The notes under the pieces are model-generated. The model did not search any database and had not been told where the DNA came from. It worked only from the letters and a program-made list of their open reading frames with translations. From contig CAVTBU010000006.1 in assembly GCA_963733035.1 (NCBI GenBank), positions 256,001-320,000 on the forward strand: a DNA stretch of 64,000 nucleotides, in the 5' to 3' direction. Numbering within the stretch: position 1 is the stretch's first letter; each line of letters opens with the position of its first letter. The position numbers and the translations under genes were made by a program. Origin of the DNA: Pirellulales bacterium (GTDB lineage: Bacteria > Planctomycetota > Planctomycetia > Pirellulales > PALSA-1355). Shown here one piece after another: positions 3,824-20,597 of this stretch.

Positions 3824-3841
3824 GGAGTTTGGCCCTTCGAA

Positions 3842-5512: not shown

Positions 5513-5528
5513 CGTCTGGTTTCCACTG

Positions 5529-5621: not shown

Positions 5622-5631
5622 GGCATTCTCC

Positions 5632-5712: not shown

Positions 5713-6108
5713 TCTATCGCCACTCAGGAACCGGCCAGCAAGTCGTCGACGGATGGATTCTAGTGGGGGCCGCGCTAAAACGGCGTCAAAAAGCCGGCCG
5801 CCCAGAATCCCCCAGACGGCGCGAGAATTCTTAGATTTCCCCATGAACCAACGAAACCCGAGCGGCGTCTAAGGTGTATAAGAGGGGTCGGGGCCAAGGG
5901 GCTGCTGACCGCTGTTGTGACAAGCTTTTACGGGTTGTTCCTTCCATGATGTTCTTACGGCCAAGACTGTTCCAAGAACGGATAGCCGGGAGTTATTGGC
6001 GCAGCGACAGTGTGCATTGATCGCGAAGCGATGCCGACCGCTGCAAGGTAATTCCTCCCCGCTACCACTCCGCTTGTGACGCTTGGCCTTTAGGTCGATC
6101 TGGCTGCC

Positions 6109-6143
6109 AAAGCCCGGTGTCGCAAGGACATCGGGCTTTTTTT
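6109..6143 (+). terminator. Intrinsic terminator/attenuator hairpin upstream of tRNA array
   Basis: AAAGCCCGGTGTC-gcaag-GACATCGGGCTTT stem followed by a T7 run. Confidence 0.75.
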
Positions 6144-6189
6144 GTTGGCCTGACGTGGAGGTGGTGGCGGGGAACCAGGCAACACACAT

Positions 6190-6280
6190 GGGTCGGTAGC
6201 GGAGACGCGGGCACCATGCGCAGCATGGTCGGCGGTGGCCTGAAAAGCCGCAGACGAGGATTCGAGCGCCTCCCGACCCA
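6190..6280 (+). tRNA. tRNA-Phe(GAA)-like, degenerate, with hairpin insertion between D and anticodon arms
   Basis: GGGTCGG/CCGACCC-A acceptor; GTGGC-CTGAAAA-GCCGC anticodon arm; TTCGA loop. Confidence 0.6.
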
Positions 6281-6283
6281 CTG

Positions 6284-6368
6284 CGCCGGGCACCGACCGC
6301 AGGTTGGTCGGCGCGACACTCAGACTGTCGTGCCGTAAGGCGTGGGAGTTCGAGTCTCCCCTTGGTCA
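6284..6368 (+). tRNA. tRNA-Leu(CAG) remnant; 5' half replaced by hairpin insertion
   Basis: CGACA-CTCAGAC-TGTCG anticodon arm, long variable arm, GGGAG-TTCGAGT-CTCCC T arm, CTTGGTC-A end; no clean 5' acceptor strand. Confidence 0.6.
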
Positions 6369-6402
6369 CTGAACTGTTGGCGGGCAAGAACCCGTTGAAC
6401 GA

Positions 6403-6471
6403 CGCAGGCGAGCCAGTGCTCAGCTGGGCCTCATAAGCCCGGACCGTCGGGTGCGACACCCGAACCTGCTA
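6403..6471 (+). tRNA. tRNA-Met/Ile2(CAT)-like, degenerate D arm
   Basis: GCAGG/CCTGC acceptor; TGGGC-CTCATAA-GCCCG anticodon arm; TCGGG-TGCGACA-CCCGA T arm. Confidence 0.55.
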
Positions 6472-6556
6472 CTAGCAACTGAGGCCGCCGAGCGATTAGC
6501 GAGGATGAAGACCGAAGGCGGTAGTCATCAGACAAGCCGCCGCGCAGCAGACATTT

Positions 6557-6630
6557 GGCCGGGTACGCAAACTGGCAAAGCGACGAGGTCGAGAGCCTCG
6601 TGTTTGTGAGTTCGACTCTCACTCCGGTCA
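6557..6630 (+). tRNA. tRNA-Leu(GAG)-like with short variable region
   Basis: GGCCGGG/TCCGGTC-A; CGAGG-TCGAGAG-CCTCG; GTGAG-TTCGACT-CTCAC. Confidence 0.7.
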
Positions 6631-6635
6631 CTGAC

Positions 6636-6708
6636 GATCCCGTGGTCCAACGGCTAAGACGCCTGGATGACACCCAGGAAACAGATGGTTCAACTCCATC
6701 CGGGATCA
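6636..6708 (+). tRNA. tRNA-Val(GAC)
   Basis: GATCCCG/CGGGATC-A; CCTGG-ATGACAC-CCAGG; GATGG-TTCAACT-CCATC. Confidence 0.8.
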
Positions 6709-6733
6709 CTTTGCAACCGAGTTGCGCAGCGAA

Positions 6734-7115
6734 TCAGTCGGACATCGTTGACGAAAGTCGAGCGGCGAGCTTTCTGCCACACCAGGCTGCAACAGCCATC
6801 GGAATCGCTGCAGCAGCAAATTGAATCGGCATCACGATTGACAACGGTCCAAGGCCCGACGGATCCGGCTCAAAGAGCGTGAGCAGGTACACGACGATAA
6901 ACGCAGCCCCACAAACCATGCCAAGCAGGACTCCCTGAGAGGTGAGGAGTCCTACTAGATAATGCGATCGAACTTGCCGTTACGACAAGGTTCCATTCGC
7001 CATCGTCCGGTGAAATACGCCAGAATCCACCGACAAGGCAAATAGCCGTCACGGCAACGAACAGAGTTCGCAAGTTGAACTGTGACCGTGACTGTAGCTC
7101 GTTGTCTCCACCCAT
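6734..7115 (-). CDS. Small membrane protein (probable frameshift near 6960)
   Basis: N-terminal QFNLRTLFVAVTAICL hydrophobic motif, continued in another frame by TM segments ending at 6734. Confidence 0.45.
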
Positions 7116-7182
7116 GATCGCCATTATACGGTACGACTTCTGGTTCAGGGCACCACGACAGAACACCGTTTACGTCGCAATT

Positions 7183-7253
7183 GGGCTGCTCGTCCAACGG
7201 GAAGACGCCTGGCTTGCAACCAGGAAATCGGGGTTCGACTCCCCGGCGGTCCA
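7183..7253 (+). tRNA. tRNA-Ala(TGC)
   Basis: GGGCTGC/GCGGTCC-A with G3:U70; CCTGG-CTTGCAA-CCAGG; GGTTCGACTCC. Confidence 0.88.
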
Positions 7254-7264
7254 CTGAACAACAC

Positions 7265-7352
7265 GGGCTCATGGTCCAAAGGGAAGACATCAGGCTGGCA
7301 GTCTGACCAGTGTCTATTGGAAATGCGGCGGGTTCAATTCCAGGTGGGTCCA
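7265..7352 (+). tRNA. tRNA-Ala(GGC)-like with insertion in variable region
   Basis: GGGCTCA/TGGGTCC-A with G3:U70; TCAGG-CTGGCAG-TCTGA; ~20-nt variable region; weak T stem. Confidence 0.6.
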
Positions 7353-7375
7353 CTCATCAATCATGGAGACGTGAA

Positions 7376-7612
7376 ATGGCCGATTCTGTGTTGATCCGGT
7401 TCGTCGGCGAAAGAGGGAAAGCACATCACTTTTTGAAGCTTGGCCCGGTAGAGGTTTGGAACCCGCCGGAGCGTGAGTTTCAGGGTGGCGACGAAATCAG
7501 GGTGCAGATTCGCCCGAATGCCTTAAACCCAGATTGCGTGGACCTGACATTTGACGATGGACAATACGCGATTGAAGTTCCGAAGGATTTCTTCGTGATC
7601 GTTGAGGAATGA
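7376..7612 (+). CDS. Hypothetical protein (78 aa)
   Basis: GGAG RBS, ATG, plausible globular sequence between tRNA genes. Confidence 0.55.
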   Translation: MADSVLIRFVGERGKAHHFLKLGPVEVWNPPEREFQGGDEIRVQIRPNALNPDCVDLTFDDGQYAIEVPKDFFVIVEE

Positions 7613-7705
7613 AATGGAAGGTAGATGCTATGGCAGCGGCGAGGGACTGCGTTAGGCTCCGAGTCACGAGGGATTGTTTTATCCGTTGTTTTGAGGAGCT
7701 CAATC

Positions 7706-8884
7706 ATGGCCACTCGACCGCAAGACTGCAGCACAACGAAGCCAGTACTGTTCCTGGGTCTCGAATTAGGGCAGCGAACCTGGAAGTTGGGGTTCACCGT
7801 GGGTTTGGGTCAGAAGCCGCGGCGACGTGAGATCGCTGCCGGTTGCATTCAGGCACTGAAACGAGAGATCAATGAGAGTAAGCAACGTTTTGGTCTGCCT
7901 GCGGATGTGGAGGTGATTAGCTGTTACGAGGCAGGCCGTGATGGGTTTTGGCTGCATCGTTGGCTGGTGTCTGAGAACGTCACAAACTTGGTGGTTGACT
8001 CGTCTAGCATTCAAGTGCCGCGGCGGCAGCGACGGGCCAAGACCGATCGTCTGGATTTGGAACAATTGTTGACCATGTTGGTGCGCTGGCATCAGGGCGA
8101 GTCGAAAGTCTGGAGCGTGGTGACGGTGCCGAGTGAAGCGGAAGAGGACGTTCGGCATTTGCATCGCGAGTTGGAAACGCTGCGGGCGGAACAGACCAGC
8201 CACATCAATCGAATCAAGAGGCTGTTGATCGGTTGCGGCGTGGTGATTGATGTGAACCGCTGGCTACCGAAACGGCTCAAAGCAATACGGCTTTGGAATG
8301 GCTCGCCGTTGACCAGCGATTTGCGGCAACGGGTATTGCGGGAGTTCGAGCGGATGCAGGTGGTCAATCGACAGGTTCGCGAGCTGGAAAAGGAGCGTGC
8401 CGCCCGGATTCGCAGCAACGAAACTGACAAGAGCGTCGCCCAGGTGCGGACGTTGTTGGGCGTGAAGGGCATCGGCGTCAACAGCGCGTGGATGTACGTG
8501 CAGGAGGTGTTTGGCTGGCGAAAGATCAAGAATCGTCGTCAATTGGGTGCGCTCGTGGGGCTGACCGGCAGTCCGTATAGCAGCGGCAACTTGGAGCGCG
8601 ATCAGGGAATTACAAAGGCTGGAAACCGCCGGATGCGAACAATGGCTGTCGAAATCGCCTGGGGATGGTTGGCATTCCAACCCGGCAGCGATCTGAGCCG
8701 TTGGTATCACGATCGATTCGCGGCCGGAAACAAGCGTCTTCGTCGCATTGGAATTGTGGCGCTGGCAAGAAAGCTGTTGGTGGAGTTGTGGAAATACCTG
8801 GAGACCGGCGTGCCGCCTTGCAACGCGGAGCTGACCGAGTGGGAGGACAAGATTCACTACACCCCTTCCCTTACGCCGGCGTAG
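7706..8884 (+). CDS. IS110-family transposase/recombinase
   Basis: GAGGAG RBS; RuvC-like GLELG / CYEAG / AKTDRLD; C-terminal GIG...YSSG...GITKAGN...VALARKL. Confidence 0.93.
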   Translation: MATRPQDCSTTKPVLFLGLELGQRTWKLGFTVGLGQKPRRREIAAGCIQALKREINESKQRFGLPADVEVISCYEAGRDGFWLHRWLVSENVTNLVVDSSSIQVPRRQRRAKTDRLDLEQLLTMLVRWHQGESKVWSVVTVPSEAEEDVRHLHRELETLRAEQTSHINRIKRLLIGCGVVIDVNRWLPKRLKAIRLWNGSPLTSDLRQRVLREFERMQVVNRQVRELEKERAARIRSNETDKSVAQVRTLLGVKGIGVNSAWMYVQEVFGWRKIKNRRQLGALVGLTGSPYSSGNLERDQGITKAGNRRMRTMAVEIAWGWLAFQPGSDLSRWYHDRFAAGNKRLRRIGIVALARKLLVELWKYLETGVPPCNAELTEWEDKIHYTPSLTPA

Positions 8885-8889
8885 CGATT

Positions 8890-9125
8890 GGATCGGTGCG
8901 AGTATGGAGCGTCTGAACGACTGACGTCGAGACTGGAAAGCGACCGAGTATCCGGCGGGTACGAGTTAGGCTCACCGAAAGGTAGATGGGATCGCTTTCA
9001 TTATGGCTTCCCGAGAGCGTCCAGGACGCATAGGGCATAGGGTGATCGGCGATGATGCCGGCACGGATAGAAGCTAGTCGTTGGCCTCGGCCACAACGAT
9101 CAGCGGAAGCCGCCAGTCATGACGT
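8890..9125 (+). ncRNA. Putative bridge RNA/seekRNA of the IS (boundaries approximate)
   Basis: Two stem-flanked internal loops carrying matches to the target (GTATCCGGC, AAGGTAG) and to the donor junction (ATAGAAG, GGCAT). Confidence 0.8.
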
Positions 9126-9336
9126 TGAACCGACAGAAGAAGTGTTTTGAGGAATGGCAGGACAAATGAATGTGCATCCCAGCACGGCTCCAGCCGCGGC
9201 GTGCGGCCAGAGCCGTCACGGAATCATTCACCCGCCCTGACCTGGCTATCCCTTGTTGGGTTGCTCTTCAGCAGAGCTCAACTCCGTTTCACCAGGCAGG
9301 CGAAAGTATATCACGACTCAACGTTGGATGAGGAGC

Positions 9337-9342
9337 TTGACA
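9337..9342 (+). promoter_or_regulatory. -35 box (TTGACA) of predicted circle-junction promoter
   Basis: 17 nt upstream of GATGCT, which forms only when the right end joins the left end. Confidence 0.6.
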
Positions 9343-9456
9343 GGTGCGCATCCATAGAAGCCGGATACGGTTGGCCGGGCCGCTCTGCTAAGGCGGTTCC
9401 CGCTCGTCGGGATGAGGGTTCGAATCCCTTGCCTTCCGCTCGTGAACGATACGTGA

Positions 9457-9529
9457 GCCTCGATGGTGAAACGGACGATCACTCCTTGCTTCTAACAAGG
9501 CATTCCGGGTTCGAATCCTGGTCGGGGCA
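9457..9529 (+). tRNA. tRNA-Arg(TCT)
   Basis: GCCTCGA/TCGGGGC-A; CCTTG-CTTCTAA-CAAGG; GGTTCGAATCC. Confidence 0.85.
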
Positions 9530-9555
9530 TTTTTGAGGAATACGACAATATATAT

Positions 9556-9630
9556 GGCGTCCGTGGTGTAGCGGTTTCTGCACGTCTGGCTGTGAACCAG
9601 AAGGTGGCGGTTCAACTCCGCTCGGACACC
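9556..9630 (+). tRNA. tRNA-His(GTG)
   Basis: G-1 and C73; TCTGG-CTGTGAA-CCAGA; GGTTCAACTCC. Confidence 0.85.
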
Positions 9631-9647
9631 CTGAAAGGAAGTGAAGC

Positions 9648-10244
9648 ATGGTCGCAAAGGTACTTGAACATCCAACGCTGGTGCTCAACCGCAACTGGCA
9701 GCCGGTGAACGTGGCCACGGTGGCCCGGGCGCTGGTGCTGTTGTGGAACGACTCGGCTCGCGTGGTGGACCCGGCGGACTACCGGCTCTACACCTGGGCC
9801 GATTGGTCGGAGCTGCGCCCGGACGAAGGCGAGCGGTTCATCCAGGCCGTGCGGCTGCGGCTGCGCGTGCCCGAGGTGATCGTGCTGGCCGAGTACGACC
9901 GGCTGCCGACCGCCGCCGTGAGCTTCAGCCGCCGCAACGTATTCAAGCGGGACCATTGGGCCTGCCAGTACTGCGGCTGCCAGCCGGGCGGAGAGGAGTT
10001 GACGATCGATCACGTGATTCCGCGGTCGCACGGTGGCACCTCGACGTGGGAGAACTGCGTGCTCGCGTGCATCGGCTGCAACAAGCGAAAGGCCGACCGC
10101 ACGCCGCACCAGGCCGGTATGCGGCTCCACAAGGTGCCGGTCCGGCCGACGTGGAAGCCGATCTACGCCCGCGACAGCGTGCGGATCGAAAGCTGGTCGA
10201 AGTTTATCAGCGAGACGTACTGGAATGTTCCGCTGGAGAAGTAG
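9648..10244 (+). CDS. HNH endonuclease (McrA-like)
   Basis: LVLN...FSRRNVFKRDHWACQYCG...LTIDHVIPRSHGG...WENCVLACIGCNKRK. Confidence 0.93.
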   Translation: MVAKVLEHPTLVLNRNWQPVNVATVARALVLLWNDSARVVDPADYRLYTWADWSELRPDEGERFIQAVRLRLRVPEVIVLAEYDRLPTAAVSFSRRNVFKRDHWACQYCGCQPGGEELTIDHVIPRSHGGTSTWENCVLACIGCNKRKADRTPHQAGMRLHKVPVRPTWKPIYARDSVRIESWSKFISETYWNVPLEK

Positions 10245-10280
10245 CCAGTTGCCCGCAGGGCTTGTTCCTGCGGGCCTTAC

Positions 10281-10350
10281 ACGAGTGTGCTCCTGGGAGA
10301 GCAGTCAGCCTCCAAAACTGACGGACGGGGTTCGACTCCTCGCGCTCGTG
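10281..10350 (+). tRNA. tRNA-Trp(CCA)
   Basis: ACGAGTG/CGCTCGT-G; TCAG-c-CTCCAAA-a-CTGA; GGTTCGACTCC. Confidence 0.78.
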
Positions 10351-10353
10351 CTT

Positions 10354-10427
10354 GCCGACGTGGCTCGAAACAGAAAGGCACCTGTCTTGTAAACAGGTTG
10401 ATGCTGGTGCGAATCCAGTCGTCGGCT
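10354..10427 (+). tRNA. tRNA-Thr(TGT)
   Basis: GCCGACG/CGTCGGC-T; CCTGT-CTTGTAA-ACAGG; T loop TGCGAAT. Confidence 0.78.
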
Positions 10428-10438
10428 CTTAAGAGTTT

Positions 10439-10744
10439 TCAGCTTGTCGCAGGCCCGCTACGGGCGTCGTCGAGCATAGTCACTAAAGATCTTCGCAGAT
10501 CAGAACCGGGCTCCTGCAACCACCGATTGTCGTAACGCGCCAAATCTGTGGCGATGTTTGCCTCGGTGAACCACTCGCCGTCGCCACGAATTAAAGCTGG
10601 GACATTGTGCAATGCGTCCAAATAGTCGTGAACCTCGTCAATTGCGATCTGCTCTCCGTAGCGTATCCGCATCCGCAAATGCGTGATCGCTCGTTCCAGA
10701 AATACCAGATAAACGTCGGCGTCGTCTTGCGGCAGGCGGAGCAT
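10439..10744 (-). CDS. Hypothetical protein (101 aa)
   Basis: Plausible helical protein filling an inter-tRNA spacer on the opposite strand. Confidence 0.5.
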   Translation of the reverse strand: MLRLPQDDADVYLVFLERAITHLRMRIRYGEQIAIDEVHDYLDALHNVPALIRGDGEWFTEANIATDLARYDNRWLQEPGSDLRRSLVTMLDDARSGPATS

Positions 10745-10799
10745 GGCACATCGCAGTCACGGATTTCGTTTGGGAGAACTGCATTCATTGTAACGCTAT

Positions 10800-10871
10800 G
10801 GCCTGTGAGTGTGTGGGATCGCACGGCAGCCTCCGAAGCTGCAAGACCAGGTTCGATTCCTGGATGGGCTA
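10800..10871 (+). tRNA. tRNA-Arg(CCG)
   Basis: GGCCTGT/ATGGGCT-A; GCAGC-CTCCGAA-GCTGC; GGTTCGATTCC. Confidence 0.8.
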
Positions 10872-10883
10872 CTTGAACAATGC

Positions 10884-10956
10884 GTCTCGCGGGTGTGCCG
10901 GATGAGCACGGCAGTGTTCGAAACTGCAAGACGAGGTTCGATTCCTCGGCGAGGCA
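10884..10956 (+). tRNA. tRNA-Arg(TCG)
   Basis: GTCTCGC/GCGAGGC-A; GCAGT-GTTCGAA-ACTGC; GGTTCGATTCC. Confidence 0.8.
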
Positions 10957-11135
10957 CTGATAAGGCGACAGACTGAATGATCATGTTGCAAACAATCCTG
11001 ACAGCACTGAGACGAGCTCTGTTTAGCCAGCCTGTAGCCGGCGGGGTGACGGCGAAGCCACCGTCGGCAGAGGCCGTCGCGTGTGCGGTCGTTCATTCGA
11101 CGACTTCGGTGGATCGCAGCGAAGGGAGGCTTACC

Positions 11136-11621
11136 ATGAACGCAGCCTATGACAAACTATGCGAACACCTGACCAACCAGCACATCGGCTTTTGGTCGCG
11201 CAGCGAGGACCTGTCGATCTGCACGGACTTTCGGGGCGAGGTCGGCACGTACCGGATCTTCGCTCGGGTTGACGCTGATGACAGCTTGTTCCAGGTCTTC
11301 GGTCACTCGCCGGTTCGCGTTCCGCCAGGCTCGCGGCCGGCGATCGCCGAGGCCGTGGCGCGGATCAACTGCGGTCTGAAGGTCGGCAAGTTCGAGATGG
11401 ATTGTGACGAGGGCGAGCTGCGGTTTCAGGCGGCCCAGATTCTGCCCGACGACGATCTCGACGAGCAGACGATTCAGCGTCTGATTGGTACGACCATGTC
11501 GATGTTGAACATTTACCTCCCGGCCGTCCTGTCGGTCATCTACGGCAACGAACTGCCGAAGGATGCCGTCAGGCACGCAGAGCCCGGGCGGCAGCTGTCC
11601 GACGAAAACGAGCCGCGGTGA
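11136..11621 (+). CDS. YbjN-domain (T3SS-chaperone-like fold) protein; possible upstream start 10977
   Basis: GGGAGG RBS; VPPGSRPAIAEAVARINCGLKVGKFEMDCDEGELRF pattern. Confidence 0.75.
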   Translation: MNAAYDKLCEHLTNQHIGFWSRSEDLSICTDFRGEVGTYRIFARVDADDSLFQVFGHSPVRVPPGSRPAIAEAVARINCGLKVGKFEMDCDEGELRFQAAQILPDDDLDEQTIQRLIGTTMSMLNIYLPAVLSVIYGNELPKDAVRHAEPGRQLSDENEPR

Positions 11622-11641
11622 GGCCTGATCACCGCGCATTT

Positions 11642-11714
11642 GTCCTCGGAGTGTGCCGGATTCGCATCCGACCCTGCGAAGGTCGAGGACCAGGTTCAAT
11701 TCCTGGCGGGGACA
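11642..11714 (+). tRNA. tRNA-Arg(GCG)
   Basis: GTCCTCG/CGGGGAC-A; CGACC-CTGCGAA-GGTCG; GGTTCAATTCC. Confidence 0.82.
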
Positions 11715-11747
11715 TTGAGGAACATTTAGAACTAAGCGAAGTGGTCA

Positions 11748-12407
11748 GTGGCACGCACAATCGGAAGCATCACGATGACTGAACTTGAACACCTTTCATT
11801 TGAGCAACTGTTGGACGGGTGCGAAAAGGGACTCAAAAACGCGCAGTCACTGGCCGCTGAGGCAGGGCTCCTCTACGAACATAAGTACTTTGCACGGACG
11901 TACGCTCTTAGTCACCTAGCAAGAGAAGAACTCGGCAAAGTCATGATGCTATATCACGCCGCCATCGACGTCCTCGTTGGTGCGACCGTTGACTGGAAGA
12001 AGCTGAGCCGACGGTTCCGAAATCACCAAGAGAAGATCATAAACGATCAAATGTTCCAATCGCACACGATGGATCTCTTGAAGGCAGCTGAATTGCTAAC
12101 GGAGCAAGAGCAGGGTCAATTGGCGGCAGCGCAGCATCTCCAATTCACGAAACAGGCGATCGCGTATCGTAATCGCAGAAAAAACGCGTCCCTCTACGTG
12201 TCCTGGGAGGATCTTGCCTTTCAGATGCCCTCTGAGGTATTCACCGAGCAACAAGCGTATCGAATCTGGATGATTGCCAAATTTGCATGCGACGACTTCA
12301 CTCGGATAGTTGAGTCACTTAGAAAATGGGGTGCCCTGGAGCGAGAGCAGTTACTCGGAGTCTGGAAGCCTGTCATCGAACAGATACAAAGCCTCCTGAA
12401 GGAATAA
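11748..12407 (+). CDS. AbiV-family (HEPN) abortive-infection-like protein
   Basis: NAQSLAAEAGLL, YALSHLAREELGK, FRNHQEK and RRKNASLYV motifs; lower GC. Confidence 0.75.
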   Translation: MARTIGSITMTELEHLSFEQLLDGCEKGLKNAQSLAAEAGLLYEHKYFARTYALSHLAREELGKVMMLYHAAIDVLVGATVDWKKLSRRFRNHQEKIINDQMFQSHTMDLLKAAELLTEQEQGQLAAAQHLQFTKQAIAYRNRRKNASLYVSWEDLAFQMPSEVFTEQQAYRIWMIAKFACDDFTRIVESLRKWGALEREQLLGVWKPVIEQIQSLLKE

Positions 12408-12411
12408 CAGC

Positions 12412-12483
12412 GACGCTGAAGCCAGACGGCATGGCGACTGCCTGCAAAGCAGTTTTTAGCGGGTTCGACTCCCGCCGGCGTCT
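12412..12483 (+). tRNA. tRNA-Cys(GCA)
   Basis: GACGCTG/CGGCGTC-T (U73); ACTGC-CTGCAAA-GCAGT; GGTTCGACTCC. Confidence 0.85.
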
Positions 12484-12485
12484 TT

Positions 12486-13030
12486 GAAGCGAAATCAGAA
12501 AGGAGATTGAAGCGAGGTTGATTCGGCCAGTTCCAGCGGCGCACGGCGGCTCGTCCTTGATGAGAGGCGATTGCTGCACGTGTGTTCCGCGAATGGGTTC
12601 TGCAGAAAGCTGCGTCTACCGTAACCAACAGATGGTTAGCTCAGTGGGTAGAGCACCAGACTTTGCATCTGGCTGTCACGGGTTCGACTCCCGTACCAAA
12701 CGCGGCTAAAAACCGCTCCGGCGCGAAAGCGTTACCAAACGCCCGCGGGGGCGGGCAAGCGTAGGTCTGCCGCTGGCACAGCGTTGAAAGACGCGGGCCC
12801 GTGCGGCGCAAGCGTCGCAACGTGCCACGTGCCAGTGGCAAACACAAGACGGTGCCCTGCAGTGCGCAGATACCGCTTGTGCGAGTCCTTGGCAACGACA
12901 AACCGACGCCGATGGCAAAGCGCGAGCCATGCTCAAGCAACGCCCTCGGCAAAGCGAAATCAACGCCTTGGATAGCACAGGCTCAAGCGCACTCCGCATA
13001 CGGATGTGGGACCGACGTTTCGCTTCGCCC
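12486..13030 (+). ncRNA. Candidate large structured RNA (GOLLD-like context)
   Basis: End-to-end pairing, many helices, GNRA-type loops, no convincing ORF. Confidence 0.6.
12630..12702 (+). tRNA. tRNA-like element (loop CTTTGCA, broken acceptor stem) inside the large RNA candidate
   Basis: TAGCTCAGTGGGTAGAGC D arm, CCAGA/TCTGG stem, ACGGG-TTCGACT-CCCGT; only TGGT/ACCA of the acceptor pairs. Confidence 0.6.
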
Positions 13031-13108
13031 CCAACGGCATTTTATTTGTGAACTAACTCGGTGGCTCGAACGTCCTATCAGTTCATGTACCGAGAGGAGG
13101 CAATTCCA

Positions 13109-14221
13109 ATGAACATCTTCATCATCAAGACAATCAAGATCCGCAGCTACGAAATGGGTCTGTACTTCCGCGACCGCGAGTTCAAGGGCTTGCTCGGCGA
13201 AGGTCGCCACTGGTTCATAGACCCGCTGGGCAAGGTCAATGTTGAAGTCGTCTCGCGGCGTGCGCCGTGGCTCGCGCACGAGAAGCTCGACGTGATCTCG
13301 CGCTCGGGTGCGCTCAAGGACCGCGCGGTGGTGTTGGACCTGAAGGACTACGAACGGGCTCTGGTCTGGATCGAGGGTCGCTTCAGCCACATCCTGCCGC
13401 CGGGCCTGTACGCCTACTGGACGGCGCTGCGTGACGTAAAGGTCGAGGTGGTCGATGCGCGGCATGTGCGCTTCGAGCACCCGGACCTGAAAGTCATCGT
13501 GCAGTCGCCGCTGGTCGAGCGCGTGCTGGAGCTGGCCACCGTGCAGGCGCACCACGTGGGCGTGCTGTTCATCGACGGCGACTTCGTTGAGACGTTGCCG
13601 CCGGGCCGCTACGCCTTCTGGAAGAACATGGCCCAGGTCAAGTTCGTCGAGGAGGATATGCGGGAGGCGATGTTCGACGTGGCCGGCCAGGACATTATGA
13701 CGGCCGATAAGGTGACGCTGCGGATGAACGCGGTCGTCACGTATCGCGTCGCCGATGCCCGGACGGCTGTGAGCACGGTGGACGACGTGCGGCAGGCCTT
13801 GTACCGCGAGGCCCAATTGGCGCTGCGTGCCGTGGTGGGTGCCCGCGAGCTCGACACGTTCTTGATGGAGAAGGACGGCGTGGCGAGCGAGTTGGCCGAC
13901 ATGGTGCGTGCGCGTGCCAAGACCTTGGGCGTGGAGCTGATTGCCGTGGGTATCCGCGACATCATCCTGCCGGGCGAAATGAAGGATCTGATGAACCGCG
14001 TCACGGAGGCCAAGAAGGCCGCCGAGGCCAACCTCATCGCTCGCCGCGAGGAAACGGCCGCCATGCGCAGCCAAGTCAACACCGCCAAGCTGCTAGCCGA
14101 CAACCCGACCCTGATGCGCCTCCGCGAGCTGGAGGTCCTGGAAAAGGTTGCCGCCAACTCGAAGCTCAACATTGTGTTGGGCGAAAAGCGGTTGACCGAG
14201 CGGATCGTCAATGTGCTGTAG
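13109..14221 (+). CDS. SPFH/band-7 (slipin-family) protein
   Basis: GAGGAGG RBS; QDIMTADKVTLRMN, GIRDIILPGEMK, RREETAAMRSQVNTAKLL, PTLMRLRELE. Confidence 0.9.
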   Translation: MNIFIIKTIKIRSYEMGLYFRDREFKGLLGEGRHWFIDPLGKVNVEVVSRRAPWLAHEKLDVISRSGALKDRAVVLDLKDYERALVWIEGRFSHILPPGLYAYWTALRDVKVEVVDARHVRFEHPDLKVIVQSPLVERVLELATVQAHHVGVLFIDGDFVETLPPGRYAFWKNMAQVKFVEEDMREAMFDVAGQDIMTADKVTLRMNAVVTYRVADARTAVSTVDDVRQALYREAQLALRAVVGARELDTFLMEKDGVASELADMVRARAKTLGVELIAVGIRDIILPGEMKDLMNRVTEAKKAAEANLIARREETAAMRSQVNTAKLLADNPTLMRLRELEVLEKVAANSKLNIVLGEKRLTERIVNVL

Positions 14222-14295: not shown

Positions 14296-15272
14296 TCAAA
14301 CACCGAAGATCGGCAATTGCAGCTTCTCTTGCAGCTCTGCCCGCACTTTCCCGCCTAGCAGGAACCGGACGAAATCGCCGGCTTCAAGCAACCGGATATC
14401 AGCCGCATCCGCTTCCCGCCGCGCCTCGTCGGTGAAGCCGAACACTGACACAAAGCAAAACCGGCCGATGCCCAGCCTTTCGAAATCGTGCTCAATCTCC
14501 GCCCAGCCGACCGGCTGGTTTTGGTACCGCTTTACTTGCACCCGCCACACCTCCTCGCCCAGCTCGCCGTGATCGAACCGCGCTTCGACATCGATGATGG
14601 GCTGATTCTTGCCCACCCGCCGTTCATCCACCACCGCGCCTTGCGCTTCAAGTAGTCGACGACGAGCCACTCCCAATCCTTGTCGTTGAGCGCCTCCGAG
14701 CGCCGGATGATGAGCGTTTGCAGCCGATGGTAGGCATCCTGCACGTCCTTGTCCGGCGCGGCGATAAGGTTCGGCGACTGGCCGCGCACGATTTGATCGA
14801 CAATGTCGAACGCCTCGGCGATTTCCCAGAACGACATCCTCGGCCCGAGCAAGCTGCCCTTGAGCCGCCCGTAGAAATCGAGAATCTTGATCGCAGGCAC
14901 CGGGTACTCGACGCGGCGGTAGTGCCAGATATCGGTCTGGTCCTCAAGCTCGAAATCACGATACAGCGAGTCAGACGCGACGCGGCAGATTTGCACGCAT
15001 TTCCCAATCGGGTTGTAGTAGAGAATGTAGTCGCCCGCCGCGCATTCGCGTCCGAAGCGGAATAGCTGTCCGGTGCCTACCCCTACCTCGCGGTCTTGCT
15101 TGTAGAACGCGCACACGCTTTTCACATGCGACCACAACTCGTCACGCGTTCCGCTCGCAAGCAGCTTCGGATCAACGTCCTGCCAGCCGACGCCGACGAT
15201 GCCGTGCCGCCGGCAGAACTCAACGCAAATCCCGCCCGAACCGAGCTTGATTCCCCACACCCGCTGGCCCAT
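14296..15272 (-). CDS. Mrr-like restriction endonuclease (frameshift near 14648)
   Basis: N-terminal VGVGW...GQLFRF...GDYIL; C-terminal IDVEA...VQVKRY...FVSVFGFT-A-EA Mrr_cat-like motifs. Confidence 0.75.
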
Positions 15273-15431
15273 GTCTCATCCCCAAAAAAGCTTCCCGAAT
15301 ACCACATCACCCGCCTTTCCACAACCGCCTGGGTTTTCGCGATGTCCGCCCGCACTGTTTCGTTCAACGCCAGGCCGCGGGCGACTATACTTGTACCACA
15401 CTCGCGCCATCACGAATCGCTCGTTAGTGAC

Positions 15432-15923
15432 ATGACGAAAATCGAACTGTACCTCCTGAACCTTGCGGGCGAATATCGCGTTTGCAGCGAGCTCAATAAG
15501 CGCGGCGTGTTCGCCACCATCACGTATGGCAACCGCAAGGGCGTCGATATCTACGCCATCAGCGATGCAAAGAATCGCGCACTGAAGATCGAGGTTAAAA
15601 CAAGCCAGCACGGCCGCTTCGTCACCGGCATCTCCCAGAAATGCCTGGAGGACAGCCCGCACGCCCCGGATTTCTGGGTCTTGTGCGACATCAAGGCGGG
15701 CGACACTGACGCATTCACCGAGCGGTTCTTCATCCTATCCCACCGCACCATCTGCCGCATCCAGAAGGCGCGCAACCAGAAATACGCCGACAAGTACACT
15801 GCCAAGCACGGTAAGGCCCCCGACCTCGCCGGCGGCGTCGACAACGTAATGATCGCCGACGTGGAGAAGTTTGAGGACAAGTGGTCGAGCATTGTCAAGC
15901 GAGTCAGGAAGCCTATCACCTGA
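15432..15923 (+). CDS. PD-(D/E)XK nuclease-fold protein
   Basis: LAGEYRVCSEL, GNRKGVDIYA, KIEVKTS. Confidence 0.7.
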   Translation: MTKIELYLLNLAGEYRVCSELNKRGVFATITYGNRKGVDIYAISDAKNRALKIEVKTSQHGRFVTGISQKCLEDSPHAPDFWVLCDIKAGDTDAFTERFFILSHRTICRIQKARNQKYADKYTAKHGKAPDLAGGVDNVMIADVEKFEDKWSSIVKRVRKPIT

Positions 15924-15961
15924 CCGCGGCGAGCCAATCAAGATAGGTATCGCGAATTAGG

Positions 15962-16699
15962 TCACTCAGCCTCTTTGCCAAGGAGTTTTTTTACGAGTGC
16001 AACCGAACCATCGAGGAAAGCAAGTCGATCCTCGATGGCGATTCGTGCCAATGGGCCCGGCGAAGCGAGAATCTCGTCAATATAGAACAATCGCACTGGA
16101 CGCTCGAATATTTCGCTAAGCCTCACTTCAATTTGAGTATGTTCGTCAGAGCGACTCCACAGAACGAGATAACTCTCTGCCACAGGTTCCCCGCGAACTA
16201 CAGACAGTAGCAGGAATAGACCGTCGCGACCGCTAACAAAGTATCGGTCCACATCCTTCCAAGTAACCGGCCCACTGAAGCCGCCCCAACTCTTGCATTC
16301 ACCCGAAATCAAACCGTCCGGTGAGCGCAGCAACAAGTCGAGCTGTACACGGCCGCCCGTGGTTTGGCACTTTCGCGTCAACTCTTTAATGCCCCACGAA
16401 CGAAGCGGCTCAGGCAAGCAGGGAAAAGTGCCGCTTGTGGCCAGTCGTTCGCCCGATGGAATCAGTTCGTGTCCCTTGATGGAACGTTCGGCGACGGAGG
16501 AGAGTCCGTGATCTTCAAACCACGCTCGCACGACAGGCTCGTAAAACCCCTGGTATCCGAGTATCCAATACGCAAATGCCCGCGTCTTGGGGTTCGTTTC
16601 CATCAATGTTTGTGCGCTTGTAGCACCACCTGCAACGGGCGCTGTCGACAGCGGCTCGTTTCCAACCGATGCAGTTGCCTGCGCAACCTCAATCGGCAA
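15962..16699 (-). CDS. Hypothetical protein, possible PD-(D/E)XK nuclease
   Basis: QLDLLL...GECKSW motif; overlaps brxL stop. Confidence 0.55.
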   Translation of the reverse strand: MPIEVAQATASVGNEPLSTAPVAGGATSAQTLMETNPKTRAFAYWILGYQGFYEPVVRAWFEDHGLSSVAERSIKGHELIPSGERLATSGTFPCLPEPLRSWGIKELTRKCQTTGGRVQLDLLLRSPDGLISGECKSWGGFSGPVTWKDVDRYFVSGRDGLFLLLSVVRGEPVAESYLVLWSRSDEHTQIEVRLSEIFERPVRLFYIDEILASPGPLARIAIEDRLAFLDGSVALVKKLLGKEAE

Positions 16700-18240
16700 T
16701 TGCTTTAATTAAGGCTTCCCGTGCATCACCGTAAAACACAATCGTCACTTTCGTCGCCAAATCGTCAGACAGTTCAAAGAGCTGTTTTCGCGATGAAATT
16801 GGCATGAGGACAACGGACGCGCCTTTCTCGACCGCCAATTCGACGACATCAATCGCATTGTGCACCGGATCAATTGACCCACCGAGATTCAATCCCCCTA
16901 CAACAACCAAGCCGCCGCGTAGGCTGCGGTTTATCAGTGACGAACAGAGGCCCAAGAGGGCGGCCATGCCTAGCGACCTTCCGCCCTTGCTGGCGTCAAA
17001 CGCCCGCAGCTGAATTGAAAACTCGTGCTCCCGCGGGTTGCGGTCACCGACAAGTTGAGACGGCTGAGAATACAAATTGGCTTCCGCGTACTTCACTGAC
17101 TCAGAGAACGACGGAGGAGCCGGTCGATTGAGAATTCGCGTCCCATTGCCTGGACCTTCAGAAACTTCGATGCGATACAGCCCCGAACCTTCGTCCTGGC
17201 CGCCGGGGCTAATCGCCCATACTTGTCCAGGCGGCAATGGATCGCGGCCGATATGGTCCTCGCTCTGCAATTCCGGGGTGACGACGAACTGTTCGATGCC
17301 GTCGCGGCCAAGCGCGTAACTAAACTGCGTGTTTCGGAACTCGGCACTGCCGATTCGCTTCTGTTGCTCCTTGACGCGTCGGCGAGATTCCAATGCCAGA
17401 CGCACTGCCCATTCAAGGTCTTTGTCAGACACGTCTTCGTCCGGGCTAGGATGAATGAGCTTGAGTAGGCCATTGATTGTTTTGTTGGCTGCGTTTTGAT
17501 CCCGACCACTCAATGCACCTCCGAACGTTACTCTTCCCTGCAGGGTCGATAGCCGATTGTGGCTTCTTAGGCGGGTCCAACACTCGCTCAGGAAATCGGA
17601 TACCAGCCCAAAATGGTTCGTCTTTGTTTGTTCGGAGACTTTCGGCACGTCCCAGCCTGGAAGGTAACCGTGAATTCGGTCCATGAGTGCGGTGTCATCT
17701 CGCATTTCGGGCGGCATCGGACCGAATAGGTGCCCGACTCGTTGCTGATGTGCCACATCGACTTCAAAATTCCCGACCATTACGATACTGCCGTAAGCCC
17801 TAATGCTTTCCTTTCCGCGGCTGAATTCACCGGACTCCATGTACCCTTTCATGATGTTGACGCCGTCCTTTTGATCGAAGGACACGCCGGACACCTCGTC
17901 GAAACACACCACATCATACTGACACACCAAGCCGCGCTGCCCCGTGCTGTTATTCACAAACATGCGGGCCACCGTCGCTTTGCCGCCGGAAACCAGGTGA
18001 GCGTACGGCGATATTTGCTGATATAAATGGCTCTTGCCAGTTCCACGCGGACCGAGTTCAACCAGGTTGTAGTTATTCTCAACAAAGGGAACCATGCGCA
18101 GGAGGAGGGCATCCATATTCCGAGGGCTGAGCGACTGCGGCTCCAGCCCGATGCTCCGAATCAAGAACTGCTTCCATTCATCGGTGGTAAAACGTTGACG
18201 CCCTTCATAGAGGCTGTCCAGCACATCCCGTTTCGAGGCA
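16689..18240 (-). pseudogene. brxL: BrxL-like AAA+/Lon-domain protein, N-terminally truncated
   Basis: LLRMVPFVENNYNLVELGPRGTGKSH, DVVCFDEV, MKGYMESGEFSRG, DRIHGYLPGW, C-terminal Lon-like domain; homology stops near 18240. Confidence 0.8.
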
Positions 18241-20597
18241 AGTCTGCCTGATGCCAAGAAGTCAGGCACGGGCTGGTCGGCCTGCTGTCCGGCCCACGAC
18301 GATCGGCAGCCCAGCCTGTCGATCGCCGAGGGGGAGGACGGCCGGGTCTTGCTCAAGTGTCACGCCGGTTGCCCAGTCGATGCAATCTGTGCGGCGCTCG
18401 GCCTCAAGCCGACAGACCTGTTTGCAGTGTCAACGTCAACGGTATTGCACCCAGCCCGGGAAAAACACCAATACCGTGGACAGGCAAACGGCAAAACGAT
18501 GGGCAACTCGTTCGCCACCGCTGACGAGGCAATCCACGAGCTCGAGCGGCGGCATGGCCCTTCCACGGCCCGATGGACCTACCGCGATGACAGCGGAGTT
18601 GTGGTCGGCGTGGTCGTTCGATGGGACTTGCCGGACGGCAGCAAGAAGATTCGGCCAGTCAGCCTGCATGGCGACCACTGGCGAATTGCGGGAATGTCCA
18701 CGCCTCGGCCGTTGTACCGCCCGGAAGACCTGCGTGACGCGAAGCGGGTCTACGTCTGCGAGGGCGAGAAGGCCGTGGAAGCGGCCCGATCGCTCGGACT
18801 GATCGCGACCACTTCGGCGCATGGATCGAAGTCGTCGGACAAGACCGATTGGAGTCCGCTCGCCGGGAGGGAGGTCGTGCTTCTGCCCGACAACGATCCG
18901 GCTGGACTTGAGTATGCAGACGCAGTCGTCGGTCTGTTGGAGCGACTCAAGCCTCCTCCGACGATCAAGGTGGTAGAGCTGCCTGACCTGCCGCAGAAGG
19001 GCGACATCGTGGAGTGGATCGAATCACATGGCGACGCAGCGGAGCCCGAGTCAATGCGAGACGAACTGGAGCAACTGGCCGACCAAGCAGATTTTGTTCA
19101 GCGCAATGTTCCGGCGAAATCAGGCGCCCGCGTCGTGAGCTTCACTCCGTTTCCGACGGAGGTGTTGCCCGAACCGATTCGAAGCTTTGTGCTTGTTGCA
19201 GCAAGGGCAATCTGCTGTGACGCGTCGTACATCGTTCTCCCGTTGTTGGCCGTGCTGGCGTCGGCGATTGGCAACACGCGCCGATTGACACTCAAGCCTG
19301 GGTGGAACGCGCCAGCAATCATCTGGACAGCCATCGTGGGCGAGAGCGGCACGGCCAAGACGCCGGCGTTTTCGCTCGTGATGCGGCCCATCAAGAATCG
19401 CCAGGCGAAGGCGCTCAAGCAATACGAAGCGGACATGCAGCAGTACCAGACTGACCTGGCGAACTATGACAAGGCGTTGACCGTCTGGAAACGGGATAAG
19501 AACACAACGGATCCGCCGCCGGACAAGCCGCATGAGCCACAGCCCAGACGGTGCATGGTCGGCGACACAACCGTCGAAGCACTCGCCCCGATTCTCAAGG
19601 CAAACTGGTGCGGCGTGCTGGTGGCCCGAGATGAGTTGGCCGGCTGGATTGGCTCGTTCGATCGATACGCCAGCGGCAAGGGCGGTGCAGACTCCCGCAT
19701 TGGTTGAGCATGTTCAATGGCGAGAACATCTCCGTGGATCGCAAGACGGGCATCCCCAAAACCATTTTCGTTCCGCTGGCCTCCGTTTGTGTGACCGGCG
19801 GCATTCAGCCGGCCATTCTGCATCGGGCCCTGGGAACTCAGCACAGAGAGTCTGGTCTGGCGGCGCGTCTGCTCGTGTGTTGCCCTCCGCGCAAGGCCAA
19901 GAAGTGGACCGATGCGGGCATCGACCCATCCATGGAAGCACAGCTTGCCATGCTGCTGGATCGTCTGTTTGAGCTCGAGCCCAGGTTCGACGAGGACGAC
20001 GAGCCGATGCCGGTCCTGGTTCGACTGTCGAAGGAAGCGCATGAGGAGTGGAAGGCCTACTACGATGCCCATGCGCATGAGCAGGTCGATTTGACCGGCG
20101 ATCTGTCCGCAGCGTGGTCAAAGCTCGAGGAATATGCCGCTCGGCTGGCGCTCGTGGTCCATTTGGTCCGCTGGGCCGCCGATGACCCAACGCTGGAGTC
20201 AGAACATGTCGTCGACGTCGACAGCGTTCGAGCGGGCGTCACGATGACCCAGTGGTTCAAGCACGAAGTTCGACGTGTCTATGCGCTGCTGTGCGAGACG
20301 GACGAGGAGCGAGACGAGCGCCGGCTCGTCGAGTGGATCGATCGCAAAGGCGGAGCGGTCACAGCTCGCGAGGCGCACATGGGCTGCCGCTGGCTTCGGG
20401 AGGCGGGCTTGGCCGAAGCTGCACTGAATGCGCTGGTGCAATCTGGGCAGGGCACCTGGGAACCATCGCCTCGCGGAGCTCGTGGCCAACCGACGCGCCG
20501 ATTCCGACTGACAACAGCGTCAACCGTCAACGGTAATTGTCCCGCACCCGACGAAAAGACGAATACCGTTGACGTTGACGACGCAGACGCAGCGTAG
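18241..20597 (+). CDS. Primase (Zn-finger + TOPRIM)/DUF3987 helicase-like replication protein; no start codon, frameshift near 19695
   Basis: CCPAHDD...KCHAGC, VCEGEKA, LPDND, VGESGTAKT, RDELAGW, GGIQP, SGLAARLL. Confidence 0.8.

Follow-up and report, generated by a model that had tools for sequence, protein, structure and literature searches.

The closest described counterpart of the RNA characterized here is the b7a-tRNA, a tRNA-like RNA beside Band-7 and RtcB genes that was predicted by Burroughs and Aravind (NAR 2016) and is unvalidated according to the passages of a later study that concern it (10.1101/312249). SPFH proteins and RNA repair meet elsewhere too: in Pseudomonas aeruginosa the SPFH protein PaFlo8 sits inside the rtc locus (passages of PMC13086221), and RtcR is reported to be activated by damaged tRNA (PMC7790460, a paper that uses none of the terms band 7, SPFH, slipin, and nucleotidyltransferase). 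Joint derepression is documented in Anabaena for the trn tRNA array, an HNH gene, RtcB, and a slipin, alr0740, which rises 42-fold (Table 1 of PMC10272220). The YrlA/Y RNAs found with Ro60 (Rsr) in rsr-yrlBA-rtcBA operons, and the large GOLLD and ROOL RNAs, are the other systems with which the present element can be compared.

The window analysed here is a stretch of 64,000 nucleotides from a Pirellulales bacterium. Between the end of a tRNA array and a slipin gene, on the plus strand, it holds a conserved structured RNA of about 555 nt that is neither a coding sequence nor a set of decayed tRNA genes: a 5' domain (about 150 nt), an embedded tRNA mimic, and a 3' domain of about 300 nt with long-range closure (Table 1). 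A sequence-only reading had proposed, at 12486-13030, an ornate non-coding RNA that contains a tRNA-like fold, a description borne out by conservation and compensatory changes in 48 homologues; the structured element does lie about there, and its bounds are better drawn from 12484, the first base past tRNA-Cys, to 13038, where the closing helix ends, plus a U-rich tail to about 13048, some 60 nt ahead of the slipin gene.

Table 1. Features of the element and its immediate neighbours, in window coordinates.
Feature	Position	Strand	Basis or remarks
tRNA-Cys(GCA), last genuine array tRNA	12412..12483	+	Rfam tRNA, 53.8 bits over the full model; ARAGORN
Variable 5' leader	12484..12532	+	Low conservation, many indels (alignments A2, A3)
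5' domain	12533..12596	+	RNAalifold helices 12533-35/12594-96 and 12537-45/12579-89
Linker with small hairpin leading to the tRNA-like unit	12597..12632	+	Constrained fold, window copy alone
tRNA-like unit, b7a-type	12633..12698	+	Rfam tRNA, 51.1 bits; stems covary
Two small hairpins	12702..12733	+	Variable/optional 12702-16; GNRA-capped 12720-24/12729-33, loop GAAA
5' strand of closing helix	12741..12768	+	GCC, GGGGGCGG, AAGCGU, GGUCU; covariation
Long hairpin, tip with GAAA- and GCAA-capped sub-hairpins	12769..12839	+	Base 12769-75/12833-39 covaries
Multi-helix core of 3' domain	12843..13008	+	Covarying helices and inner helices
3' strand of closing helix (13009-13038), then U-rich tail AUUUUAUUUG	13009..13048	+	Covariation of pairs
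SPFH/Band-7 slipin, 370 aa	13109..14221	+	Pfam Band_7; RBS GAGGAGG at 13092-98

The plus strand of the element folds to -239.4 kcal/mol, compared with -213.2 +/- 5.8 kcal/mol for 100 shuffles (z -4.53, none as good), and the minus strand gives z -2.18, with 4 of 100 shuffles as good; the fold signal is strand-specific, plus over minus. The element does not code for protein: this genome carries it twice, and the copies are offset from each other by indels of 5 nt, 11 nt, and further sizes not divisible by three. The structure was assessed on a MAFFT alignment of 48 homologues (37 of them recovered with a search pattern in which some of the 5' domain is fixed) against a null of 500 shuffles, with slid controls in addition. 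At the 72 consensus pairs, 95.1% of 3409 cells are paired (85.5 +/- 0.3% in shuffles), compensatory changes occur at 41 pairs (26.7 +/- 2.1 in shuffles), and covariation is 0.330 (0.155 in shuffles, at most 0.083 in the slid controls), with none of the 500 shuffles reaching any of these values. A further 44 pairs taken from the window copy's own fold are 72.2% paired (58.7% in shuffles), with covariation of 0.337 against 0.162. Mean column identity among the aligned homologues is 39%, yet pairing is kept by compensatory changes. A non-functional, decayed piece of tRNA array (pseudo-tRNAs and spacer) spread by duplication might be expected to look like this locus in two respects, the broken acceptor stem of the tRNA-like unit and the duplication of the cassette in this genome, where the second copy's slipin is truncated, but both covariation tests contradict decay. 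Also against it are the pairing kept at such low identity, the single tRNA-like unit that an Rfam scan detects in the element, and the conservation of the element in several of the phylum's families and classes, and we find this explanation scarcely credible.

Several individual helices proposed from the letters alone are supported by covariation across the 48 homologues: UGCCGCUGGCA/UGCCAGUGGCA at the base of the long hairpin (12769-75 with 12833-39), AGUGCGC/GCGCACU (12861-67 with 12987-93), and CUUGUGC/GCACAGG (12875-81 with 12976-82). Other proposed pairings, the end closure GAAGCGA/UCGCUUC, the long-range GUUGAUU/AAUCAAC, and CGGUGCCC/GGGACCG, received no family-wide support in a joint test of the three helices (54.4% paired against 53.1% in shuffles; covariation 0.161 against 0.154, with 117 of 500 shuffles as high). 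They could be specific to this lineage, since the 5' leader aligns poorly. In place of the proposed end closure, the 3' domain is closed by a long-range helix, 12748-55/13024-31 with 12741-43/13036-38, whose main part has compensatory changes at 8 of 9 pairs and 94.9% of cells paired, and in whose extension (12764-68/13009-13) one pair switches between A-U (23 sequences) and G-C (20).

The remaining parts are conserved to different degrees. The 5' leader carries an AAGCRAGG-type motif, with AAGGAG in this lineage only. The 5' domain has a variable hairpin with CCA/UGG and CGG/CCG as its closing pairs and, on its flanks, the conserved strings CCAGCGGCGC, GUGUUCCG, and AUGGGUUCU, which are partly fixed by the search pattern (one locus recovered through its protein, L185, reads CCAACGGCGC); the base of this hairpin covaries, and its inner helix 12546-50/12573-77 is 79% paired. 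Between the tRNA-like unit and the 3' domain, the GNRA hairpin is 90.7% paired with compensatory changes at four of its five pairs, and the hairpin before it is only 48% paired in the alignment and missing from some homologues. The inner part of the base of the long hairpin covaries at 4 of 4 pairs, and its tip varies in length and sequence. The most conserved strings (GUGCCCUGCAGUGCGCAGAUACCGC, GCUCAAGCGCACUCCGC, and GUGGGACC) lie in the 3'-domain core, which is built of helices 12843-46/13005-08, 12852-55/12996-99, 12859-70/12983-94, and 12875-81/12976-82 enclosing inner helices 12885-93/12965-73, 12908-12/12946-50, 12914-16/12942-44, and 12924-27/12931-34.

The embedded unit is shaped like a tRNA without having the features of a genuine one. 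A tRNA-like unit with a broken acceptor stem had been noticed at 12630-12702, and the Rfam tRNA model indeed aligns there, only from model position 4 to 67. The unit keeps complete D-, anticodon, and T-arms, has 3-4 acceptor pairs in place of seven with a discriminator base, and lacks CCA. ARAGORN makes no call on the window copy. The body of the unit is similar to genuine tRNA-His(GTG) genes at 10 of the 11 relatives' loci examined. The anticodon loop, CUUUGCA in the window copy, is unconstrained across the family: the 48 homologues have 34 distinct loops, with a mean entropy of 1.18 bits compared with 0.19 bits for the T-loop, 29 of 48 have U33, and of the 46 loops of seven bases, 18 have A at position 34 and 39 keep a purine at position 37. 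Cis-pairing of the mimic's anticodon loop with a "codon," as in a T-box, was considered and rejected: nowhere along the alignment do counts of 3-5-base k-mers leave the range of the shuffled null, and no partner sequence covaries with the loop. Such variability while the arms and T-loop are conserved, with 28 different "anticodons" among the 45 units that ARAGORN calls in homologues, is what a tRNA-shaped bait or tripwire might show, in which anticodon nucleases or other toxins would cut the mimic's loop and either the broken fold or the resulting cyclic-phosphate fragments would turn on the slipin and repair. Such a device would fit a neighbourhood that offers spare tRNAs along with one HNH and one AbiV/HEPN gene, and the reported activation of RtcR by damaged tRNA (PMC7790460). 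However, loop variability equally fits a plain lack of constraint, nothing covaries with the loop, RtcR is absent from the window, and the cleavage is purely postulated, so that we judge this explanation quite improbable.

Apart from tRNA, the element matches no family in Rfam. A scan with Rfam 15 (cmscan), over the whole window at gathering scores and over 12300-13200 at E<=10, returned only tRNA and weak tRNA-like families, and so the element is not GOLLD or ROOL, as the suggestion of a GOLLD variant would have had it. It does share with these RNAs a size class, many helices, GNRA loops, and a tRNA array with an HNH gene, and one copy sits on a 94-kb IMG/VR contig. A GOLLD- or ROOL-like RNA that forms RNA-only multimers and lies near tRNAs by chance, independently of the slipin, is nevertheless very improbable, given that no GOLLD, ROOL, or other Rfam model matches even at that permissive threshold, that the element is chromosomal in Planctomycetota and tightly linked to a specific protein gene, that the 5'-domain pattern has no match in viral contigs, and that a search of a phage collection with the slipin protein found no match. 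The YrlA model scores 15.6 bits on the element against a gathering score of 69, and this weak match lies mostly on tRNA-Cys. The element resembles YrlA/Y RNAs as a noncoding RNA with a tRNA-like module beside a ring-forming protein in the manner of repair and stress loci, but the protein partner differs, and a search of this 92%-complete genome turned up no TROVE/Ro60 gene.

Homologues are found at at least 74 loci, mostly in Planctomycetota: 74 of 119 loci from the pattern scan match an nhmmer profile, 37 of them over its full length, and a covariance model of the 5' domain (R1) matches 13 of 151 genomes in a phylum-wide sample. A DNA search at the level of the order gave long matches (E<=6e-19) in only 9 of 38 hit genomes, this genome included; the other matches (20-60 nt, E 2e-6 to 1e-2) were treated as partial or chance. 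Linkage to the slipin is tight. A slipin homologue lies downstream in 42 of 47 loci with enough flank, its start at most about 175 nt from the estimated end of the element in 39 of the 47. In each of the 12 other R1-positive genomes, the contig with the R1 match also encodes a slipin on that strand, starting 0.35-0.85 kb downstream of the match. The slipin of the window matches Pfam Band_7 (8e-31) over residues 144-315, has no Pfam match in residues 1-143, and matches solved stomatin chains at 1e-32 over residues 151-356; judged by eye from its sequence, it is probably soluble, with no apparent membrane segment.

A tRNA-like RNA that immediately precedes a slipin-type Band-7 gene in the same orientation is the arrangement expected of b7a-tRNA systems, and the likeness extends to the proteins. 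Full-length homologues of the slipin (33-39% identity) stand beside RtcR, RtcB, or RlaP in Burkholderia, Photobacterium, Citrobacter, and E. coli, with leaders that are tRNA-like or related: RtcR adjoins the slipin in Citrobacter, Burkholderia, and Photobacterium, RtcB in Photobacterium, and RlaP in Citrobacter, and in Burkholderia and Photobacterium the slipin is preceded by tRNA-like units. Enterobacterial leaders may also share part of the 5' domain, their apparently related module being placed after a sigma-54-like promoter and ahead of the slipin: the two best matches of R1 in 54 kb are the slipin leaders of E. coli and Citrobacter (E 2e-4 and 8e-4; 20.6 and 18.7 bits). A resemblance of the 3' end to proteobacterial and firmicute leaders seen by eye (GUGUGA..., CGCUUCGCCCC...) was not upheld: in those leaders a 3'-end model (R2) found nothing significant (best E 0.031, inside rluF), nor did nhmmer (E 0.27-9). 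Against these likenesses, the tRNA mimic here is buried in an RNA of about 555 nt, the element ends a tRNA array of 14 to 30 genes rather than standing behind a sigma-54 promoter, and no RtcR, RtcB, or RlaP adjoins it or lies within this window; the RtcB of this genome is on another contig, read in two overlapping frames. Among relatives with short flanks, one locus (L127) has an RlaP-like stretch after the slipin and another (L172) an RtcB fragment before the element. The proposal of an undescribed large RNA class holds in part: a tRNA-like RNA beside Band-7 was already predicted in 2016 as b7a-tRNA (as related in passages of 10.1101/312249), and the 5' and 3' domains match no Rfam family. 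The papers searched, in which the 2016 prediction is covered at second hand and b7a-tRNA is named in one paper only, contain no account of such domains flanking the tRNA-like unit, nor of any large structured RNA that separates a tRNA array from a slipin gene. New are the size, the fusion to an L-type tRNA array, and the 3' domain of about 300 nt, which was detected only in Planctomycetota-type loci.

Most of the homologous loci are preceded by tRNA arrays. A plus-strand tRNA ends within 150 nt of the element in 49 of 72 loci with upstream flank, and 41 of these 49 tRNAs are tRNA-Cys(GCA). The window's own partial array has 14 tRNA genes in 6.3 kb, and a second stretch, of 30 plus-strand tRNA genes within 10.4 kb just upstream of the window, ends at copy B of the element; in both number and density it qualifies as a tRNA array unit, for which 20 tRNA genes and 2 per kb are the minimum (PMC4758250). 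As in the L-type arrays and TrcR regulon of Anabaena, a long, horizontally mobile array is accompanied by an HNH gene, and there too a slipin is tied to them, being co-induced with array, HNH gene, and RtcB under translational stress (passages of PMC8421152 and PMC10272220). In Anabaena, however, separately located genes are linked by regulation, whereas here the link is physical, and the passages on the Anabaena array in these papers describe no structured RNA between array and slipin.

Downstream, the closing helix followed by a U-rich tail resembles a terminator and is likely the 3' end of the RNA. At least five of the next eight bases are T in 31 of 48 homologues, and a T-run of at least four is present in 24 of 48 (two rows are cut short there); the tail is weak in 17 of 48, and termination is therefore not universal. 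A scan for sigma-70 promoters and simple terminators was uninformative for the element, the closing-helix end having escaped it because of its loop limit of 8 nt. Pieces of the element occur on contigs from four metatranscriptome studies, one of which covers 12490-12693 with a single mismatch, and another RNA-library contig spans 12882-13121, across the terminator-like end into the start of the slipin; these are assembled contigs, which carry neither ends nor strand and could include DNA carry-over. The 24 sequencing runs listed each hold a small share of the stretch (0.07-0.21).

A terminator-like end just ahead of a gene invites another account, in which the element is a cis-acting attenuator leader of the slipin mRNA and makes no stable trans-acting RNA: the closing helix and U-tail would set termination against read-through, and the tRNA-like unit would sense tRNA-processing or tRNA-modifying enzymes or translation factors. 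The same-strand slipin close downstream, the U-rich tail in most homologues, the enterobacterial module placed between promoter and slipin, and the contig bridging 12882-13121 would all suit this account, and in the window copy a local hairpin (12741-46/12751-56) competes with the closing helix. By eye, though, the competing hairpin is unconserved in homologues, and a conserved multi-helix core of about 300 nt far exceeds the needs of known attenuators. Copies without a downstream slipin also exist (G006b, G006c, and 5 of the 47 loci), and there is no conserved leader peptide, because indels break every frame. On balance we consider attenuation alone an unlikely explanation.

The interpretation we favour, to which we give about even credence, is that the element is a Planctomycetota-type, enlarged form of the Band-7-associated tRNA-like RNA and a candidate partner or scaffold of the slipin in a response to translation damage. 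It would be co-transcribed with the tRNAs of the array, processing of tRNA-Cys would free its 5' end, and the closing helix with the U-tail would end or protect its 3' end. The resulting stable RNA could then serve as the cognate partner, scaffold or bait, of the oligomeric slipin, and its tRNA elbow, by analogy with the Y RNA/YrlA-Ro60 model, might recruit or occupy tRNA-handling or repair enzymes when translation or tRNAs are damaged. Transcription that continues past the terminator-like end would tie slipin synthesis to this transcript. A bolder version, which we advance only tentatively, is that this is a new class of large ornate RNA forming a ribonucleoprotein cage with a ring-forming slipin, like Ro60-Y RNA or a vault: the elbow would capture damaged tRNAs or repair enzymes, the spare tRNAs of the array would restore translation, and the 3' domain would be the platform for slipin binding or assembly.

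Bacterial RNAs longer than 500 nt with dense, covariation-supported structure but no known function are, to our knowledge, rare. The role of this one is testable, because it comes with an obvious candidate protein partner and a stress context, and at least one cultured, nonpathogenic carrier exists, Adhaeretor mobilis HG15A2 (locus L127). The element gives the unvalidated idea of b7a-tRNA and Band-7 a much richer RNA to work with, and it physically joins accessory L-type tRNA arrays, HNH genes, and slipins, which had earlier been tied together only by co-regulation in cyanobacteria.

The structured RNA candidate at 12484-13048 (+), between a tRNA-Cys and a slipin (SPFH/Band-7) gene, is real, and the sequence-only reading of it as a non-coding RNA with a tRNA-like fold inside holds: the + strand of 12484-13035 has a folding energy of -239.4 kcal/mol versus -213.2 +/- 5.8 for shuffled sequences (z -4.53, 0/100; only -2.18 for the - strand), its homologues covary, and 12633-12698 gives a partial Rfam tRNA match (51.1 bits, model positions 4-67). 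ARAGORN on the window makes no call for this tRNA-like unit. A coding sequence is ruled out because the indels separating the window element from a second copy in the genome (copy B) are not divisible by three (5, 11, and other lengths). The GOLLD variant proposed there as one option has no counterpart in Rfam 15, which reported tRNAs alone across the window at gathering scores and tRNA-type matches alone in 12300-13200 at E<=10; a GOLLD-like assembly made of RNA only is very improbable.

Covariation was measured on a MAFFT alignment of 48 homologues, not fitted to structure (mean column identity 39%), which includes several near-duplicate rows (same species, two collections) and draws 37 of its rows from a pattern fixing CCAGCGGCGC, GTTCCG, and TGGNTTNT; a locus reached through the protein rather than the pattern has CCAACGGCGC. 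RNAalifold predicts 72 pairs and shows compensatory changes at 41 of these. In this consensus, 95.1% of cells are paired (shuffled, 85.5 +/- 0.3%) and covariation is 0.330 (shuffled, 0.155; best slid control, 0.083), while the 44 pairs of the window fold, a set somewhat favoured by its derivation from one aligned sequence, give 72.2% (shuffled, 58.7%) and 0.337 (shuffled, 0.162; best slid control, 0.158). None of 500 shuffles reached the observed values on any measure for either set. That the element is junk is hardly credible. Three of the six helices drawn from the sequence alone lie within the consensus (12769-12775/12833-12839, AGUGCGC/GCGCACU, and CUUGUGC/GCACAGG); the end closure GAAGCGA/UCGCUUC, GUUGAUU/AAUCAAC, and a helix with GGGACCG as one strand are without support there.

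Features of the element and related loci (unprefixed coordinates, window; G000, source genome, with contigs C5 and C6; L, extracted loci)
Feature	Position	Strand	Remarks
tRNA genes (14)	6190-12483	+	
IS110-family transposase, 419 aa	7625-8884		among array tRNAs, after tRNA-Ala(GGC)
HNH endonuclease	9648-10244	+	among array tRNAs
YbjN-family protein	10977-11621	+	among array tRNAs
AbiV/HEPN protein	11748-12407	+	among array tRNAs
tRNA-Cys(GCA)	12412-12483	+	5' neighbour of element
5' domain	12533-12596	+	CCA/UGG and CGG/CCG pairs closing variable hairpin
tRNA-like cloverleaf	12633-12698	+	
Two small hairpins		+	between cloverleaf and 3' domain; one GNRA-capped
3' domain	12741-13038	+	closed by long-range helix 12741-12768/13009-13038
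Long hairpin in 3' domain	12769-12839	+	
Multi-helix core of 3' domain	12843-13008	+	
Slipin ORF, 370 aa, SPFH/Band-7	13109-14221	+	Pfam Band_7 8e-31, residues 144-315
Separate mobile island	14532-22138		3' of slipin; PDC-S02-like ORF, DUF3987 gene as two ORFs, tyrosine integrase adjoining tRNA-Glu(CTC); BrxL N-terminally truncated (profile positions 168-677 alone matched)
30-gene tRNA array	L198 (G000:C6:238000-256000) 3457-13823	+	directly upstream of window
IS110-family transposase, 419 aa	L198 8364-9623		after tRNA-Ala(GGC), position equivalent to 7625-8884
Copy B	C6:251828-252366		end of 30-tRNA array
RtcB	G000:C5:873071-874377 (L196/L197)		two overlapping pieces, different frames (profile positions 1-228, 213-426); may be frameshift or assembly error
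Lone 70-nt fragment	G000:C5:2678932-2679001 (L003/L035)	-	near tRNA-Leu(TAA), other contig; 87% identical to 3'-domain conserved core, 12847-12916
~290-nt leader, E. coli	L192 (CP061233.1) 6480-7003		sigma-54-like promoter to slipin-RlaP genes
~290-nt leader, Citrobacter	L191 6690-6985		sigma-54-like promoter to slipin-RlaP genes

Directly 3' of the closing helix the window copy reads AUUUUAUUUG, and at least five of the eight bases after this helix are T in 31 of 48 homologues (two rows end early there). The 5' strand of the helix has an alternative local hairpin at 12741-12756 (GCCCGC-GGGG-GCGGGC), which could be a switch but lacks conservation in many homologues. Contigs from four metatranscriptome studies contain parts of the element or its close relatives, for example 12490-12693 (one mismatch), 12564-12852, 12843-13017, and 12891-13041; one (12412-12574) bridges tRNA-Cys and element and another (12882-13121) bridges the terminator-like end and slipin, and as assembled contigs they attest that such sequence occurs in RNA libraries but do not define its ends, strand, or level. 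That the element is purely an attenuator is possible but rather doubtful.

In the tRNA mimic, the stems and T-loop are conserved across the 48 homologues (T-loop entropy 0.19 bits) and the anticodon loop is unconstrained (1.18 bits; 34 distinct loops), with U33 in just 29 homologues, A34 in 18 of the 46 loops that have seven bases, and no covarying partner found for the loop elsewhere in the RNA. Among 74 loci, ARAGORN calls the mimic a tRNA in 45, with 28 different 'anticodons'. In 10 of the 11 loci examined from relatives, the body of the mimic is similar to genuine tRNA-His(GTG) genes. A role as nuclease bait seems improbable.

Copy B, 16.6 kb upstream, is 86% identical to the window element, and its duplication also takes in tRNA-Cys and the ORF start. 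Near-full-length relatives occur in three other genomes of the same family, and long matches (E<=6e-19) in 9 of 401 genomes of an order-level sample (source genome included); identity of up to 87% between different families suggests lateral spread. A degenerate 5'-domain pattern scanned against one-genome-per-species contigs found at least 119 stretches, whose record titles, among the matches listed, are mostly Planctomycetota MAGs and include Adhaeretor mobilis HG15A2; an nhmmer profile of the element matches 74 of these stretches (37 at full length). R1, a covariance model of the 5' domain, has hits in 13 of the 151 genomes sampled across the phylum (source genome included); these hits come from several families and are not confined to a single class. 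Three copies in one genome (G006) suggest that the cassette undergoes duplication and decay; copies without a neighbouring tRNA-Cys or without slipin downstream exist (L004 in G030; L033/L034 in G006). The entire cassette of 15 tRNAs, tRNA-Cys, element, and slipin (75% amino-acid identity) is also found on L185 (IMGVR_UViG_3300007072_000340, 94 kb, IMG/VR viral class).

A slipin homologue lies downstream in 42 of the 47 loci whose downstream flank is 1300 nt or longer, starting ~175 nt or less from the element end in 39 and ~1 kb away in 3. Upstream, a tRNA ends within 150 nt of the element in 49 of 72 loci (tRNA-Cys in 41 of those), with up to 22 tRNAs in the available flanks. All 12 other R1-positive genomes of the phylum sample carry slipin on the contig and strand of the R1 match, which lies 0.35-0.85 kb 5' of the gene start, and 11 more genomes with more divergent slipins (39-56% identity) are R1-negative. 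Residues 151-356 of the window slipin match stomatin chains with solved structures (1e-32). By its appearance, the window array is a segmental duplicate of the second half of the 30-gene array, with kdp genes between; the 30-gene array ends in tRNA-Arg(GCG), tRNA-Cys, copy B, and a truncated slipin (matching residues 1-210 only). PMC8421152 describes L-type tRNA arrays as linked to HNH genes and as induced by translational stress; the HNH link, which the window array also has, is reported there for cyanobacteria. Table 1 of PMC10272220 has the Anabaena slipin alr0740, an HNH gene, RtcB, and the trn tRNA array derepressed together.

Full-length slipin homologues (33-39% identity) also occur in Citrobacter, E. 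coli, Burkholderia, Photobacterium, and Subdoligranulum records. Their neighbours include genes of RNA repair (regulator RtcR, ligase RtcB, nucleotidyltransferase RlaP): divergent rtcR and RlaP (PF10127) in Citrobacter, with a sigma-54-like promoter and then a leader with a T-loop-like motif upstream; RtcR in Burkholderia (L193), with an aberrant tRNA-like unit upstream; and RtcR and RtcB in Photobacterium (L195), with two tRNA-like units upstream. PMC13086221 likewise places an SPFH gene within the P. aeruginosa rtc locus. Across the 54 kb of these loci from other phyla, the top two R1 matches are the E. coli and Citrobacter leaders (E 2e-4 and 8e-4, rough values from two related species), which have a CGGCAC-hairpin-GUGUUCCGU module in common with the planctomycete RNA; a 3'-end sequence model had no significant match in the leaders. 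In complete genomes, the region of the E. coli leader occurs (at least 80% coverage) in 1629 of 5426, with no annotated feature under it.

The best classification of the element is as a greatly enlarged variant, Planctomycetota-type, of the module of Band-7 genes and b7a-tRNA (a tRNA-like RNA predicted in 2016 beside Band-7/RtcB repair genes, according to 10.1101/312249), fused to an L-type tRNA array. In the mode of action that we favour, and infer at about an even chance of being right, it would be a stable RNA partnering slipin in a response to translation or tRNA damage.
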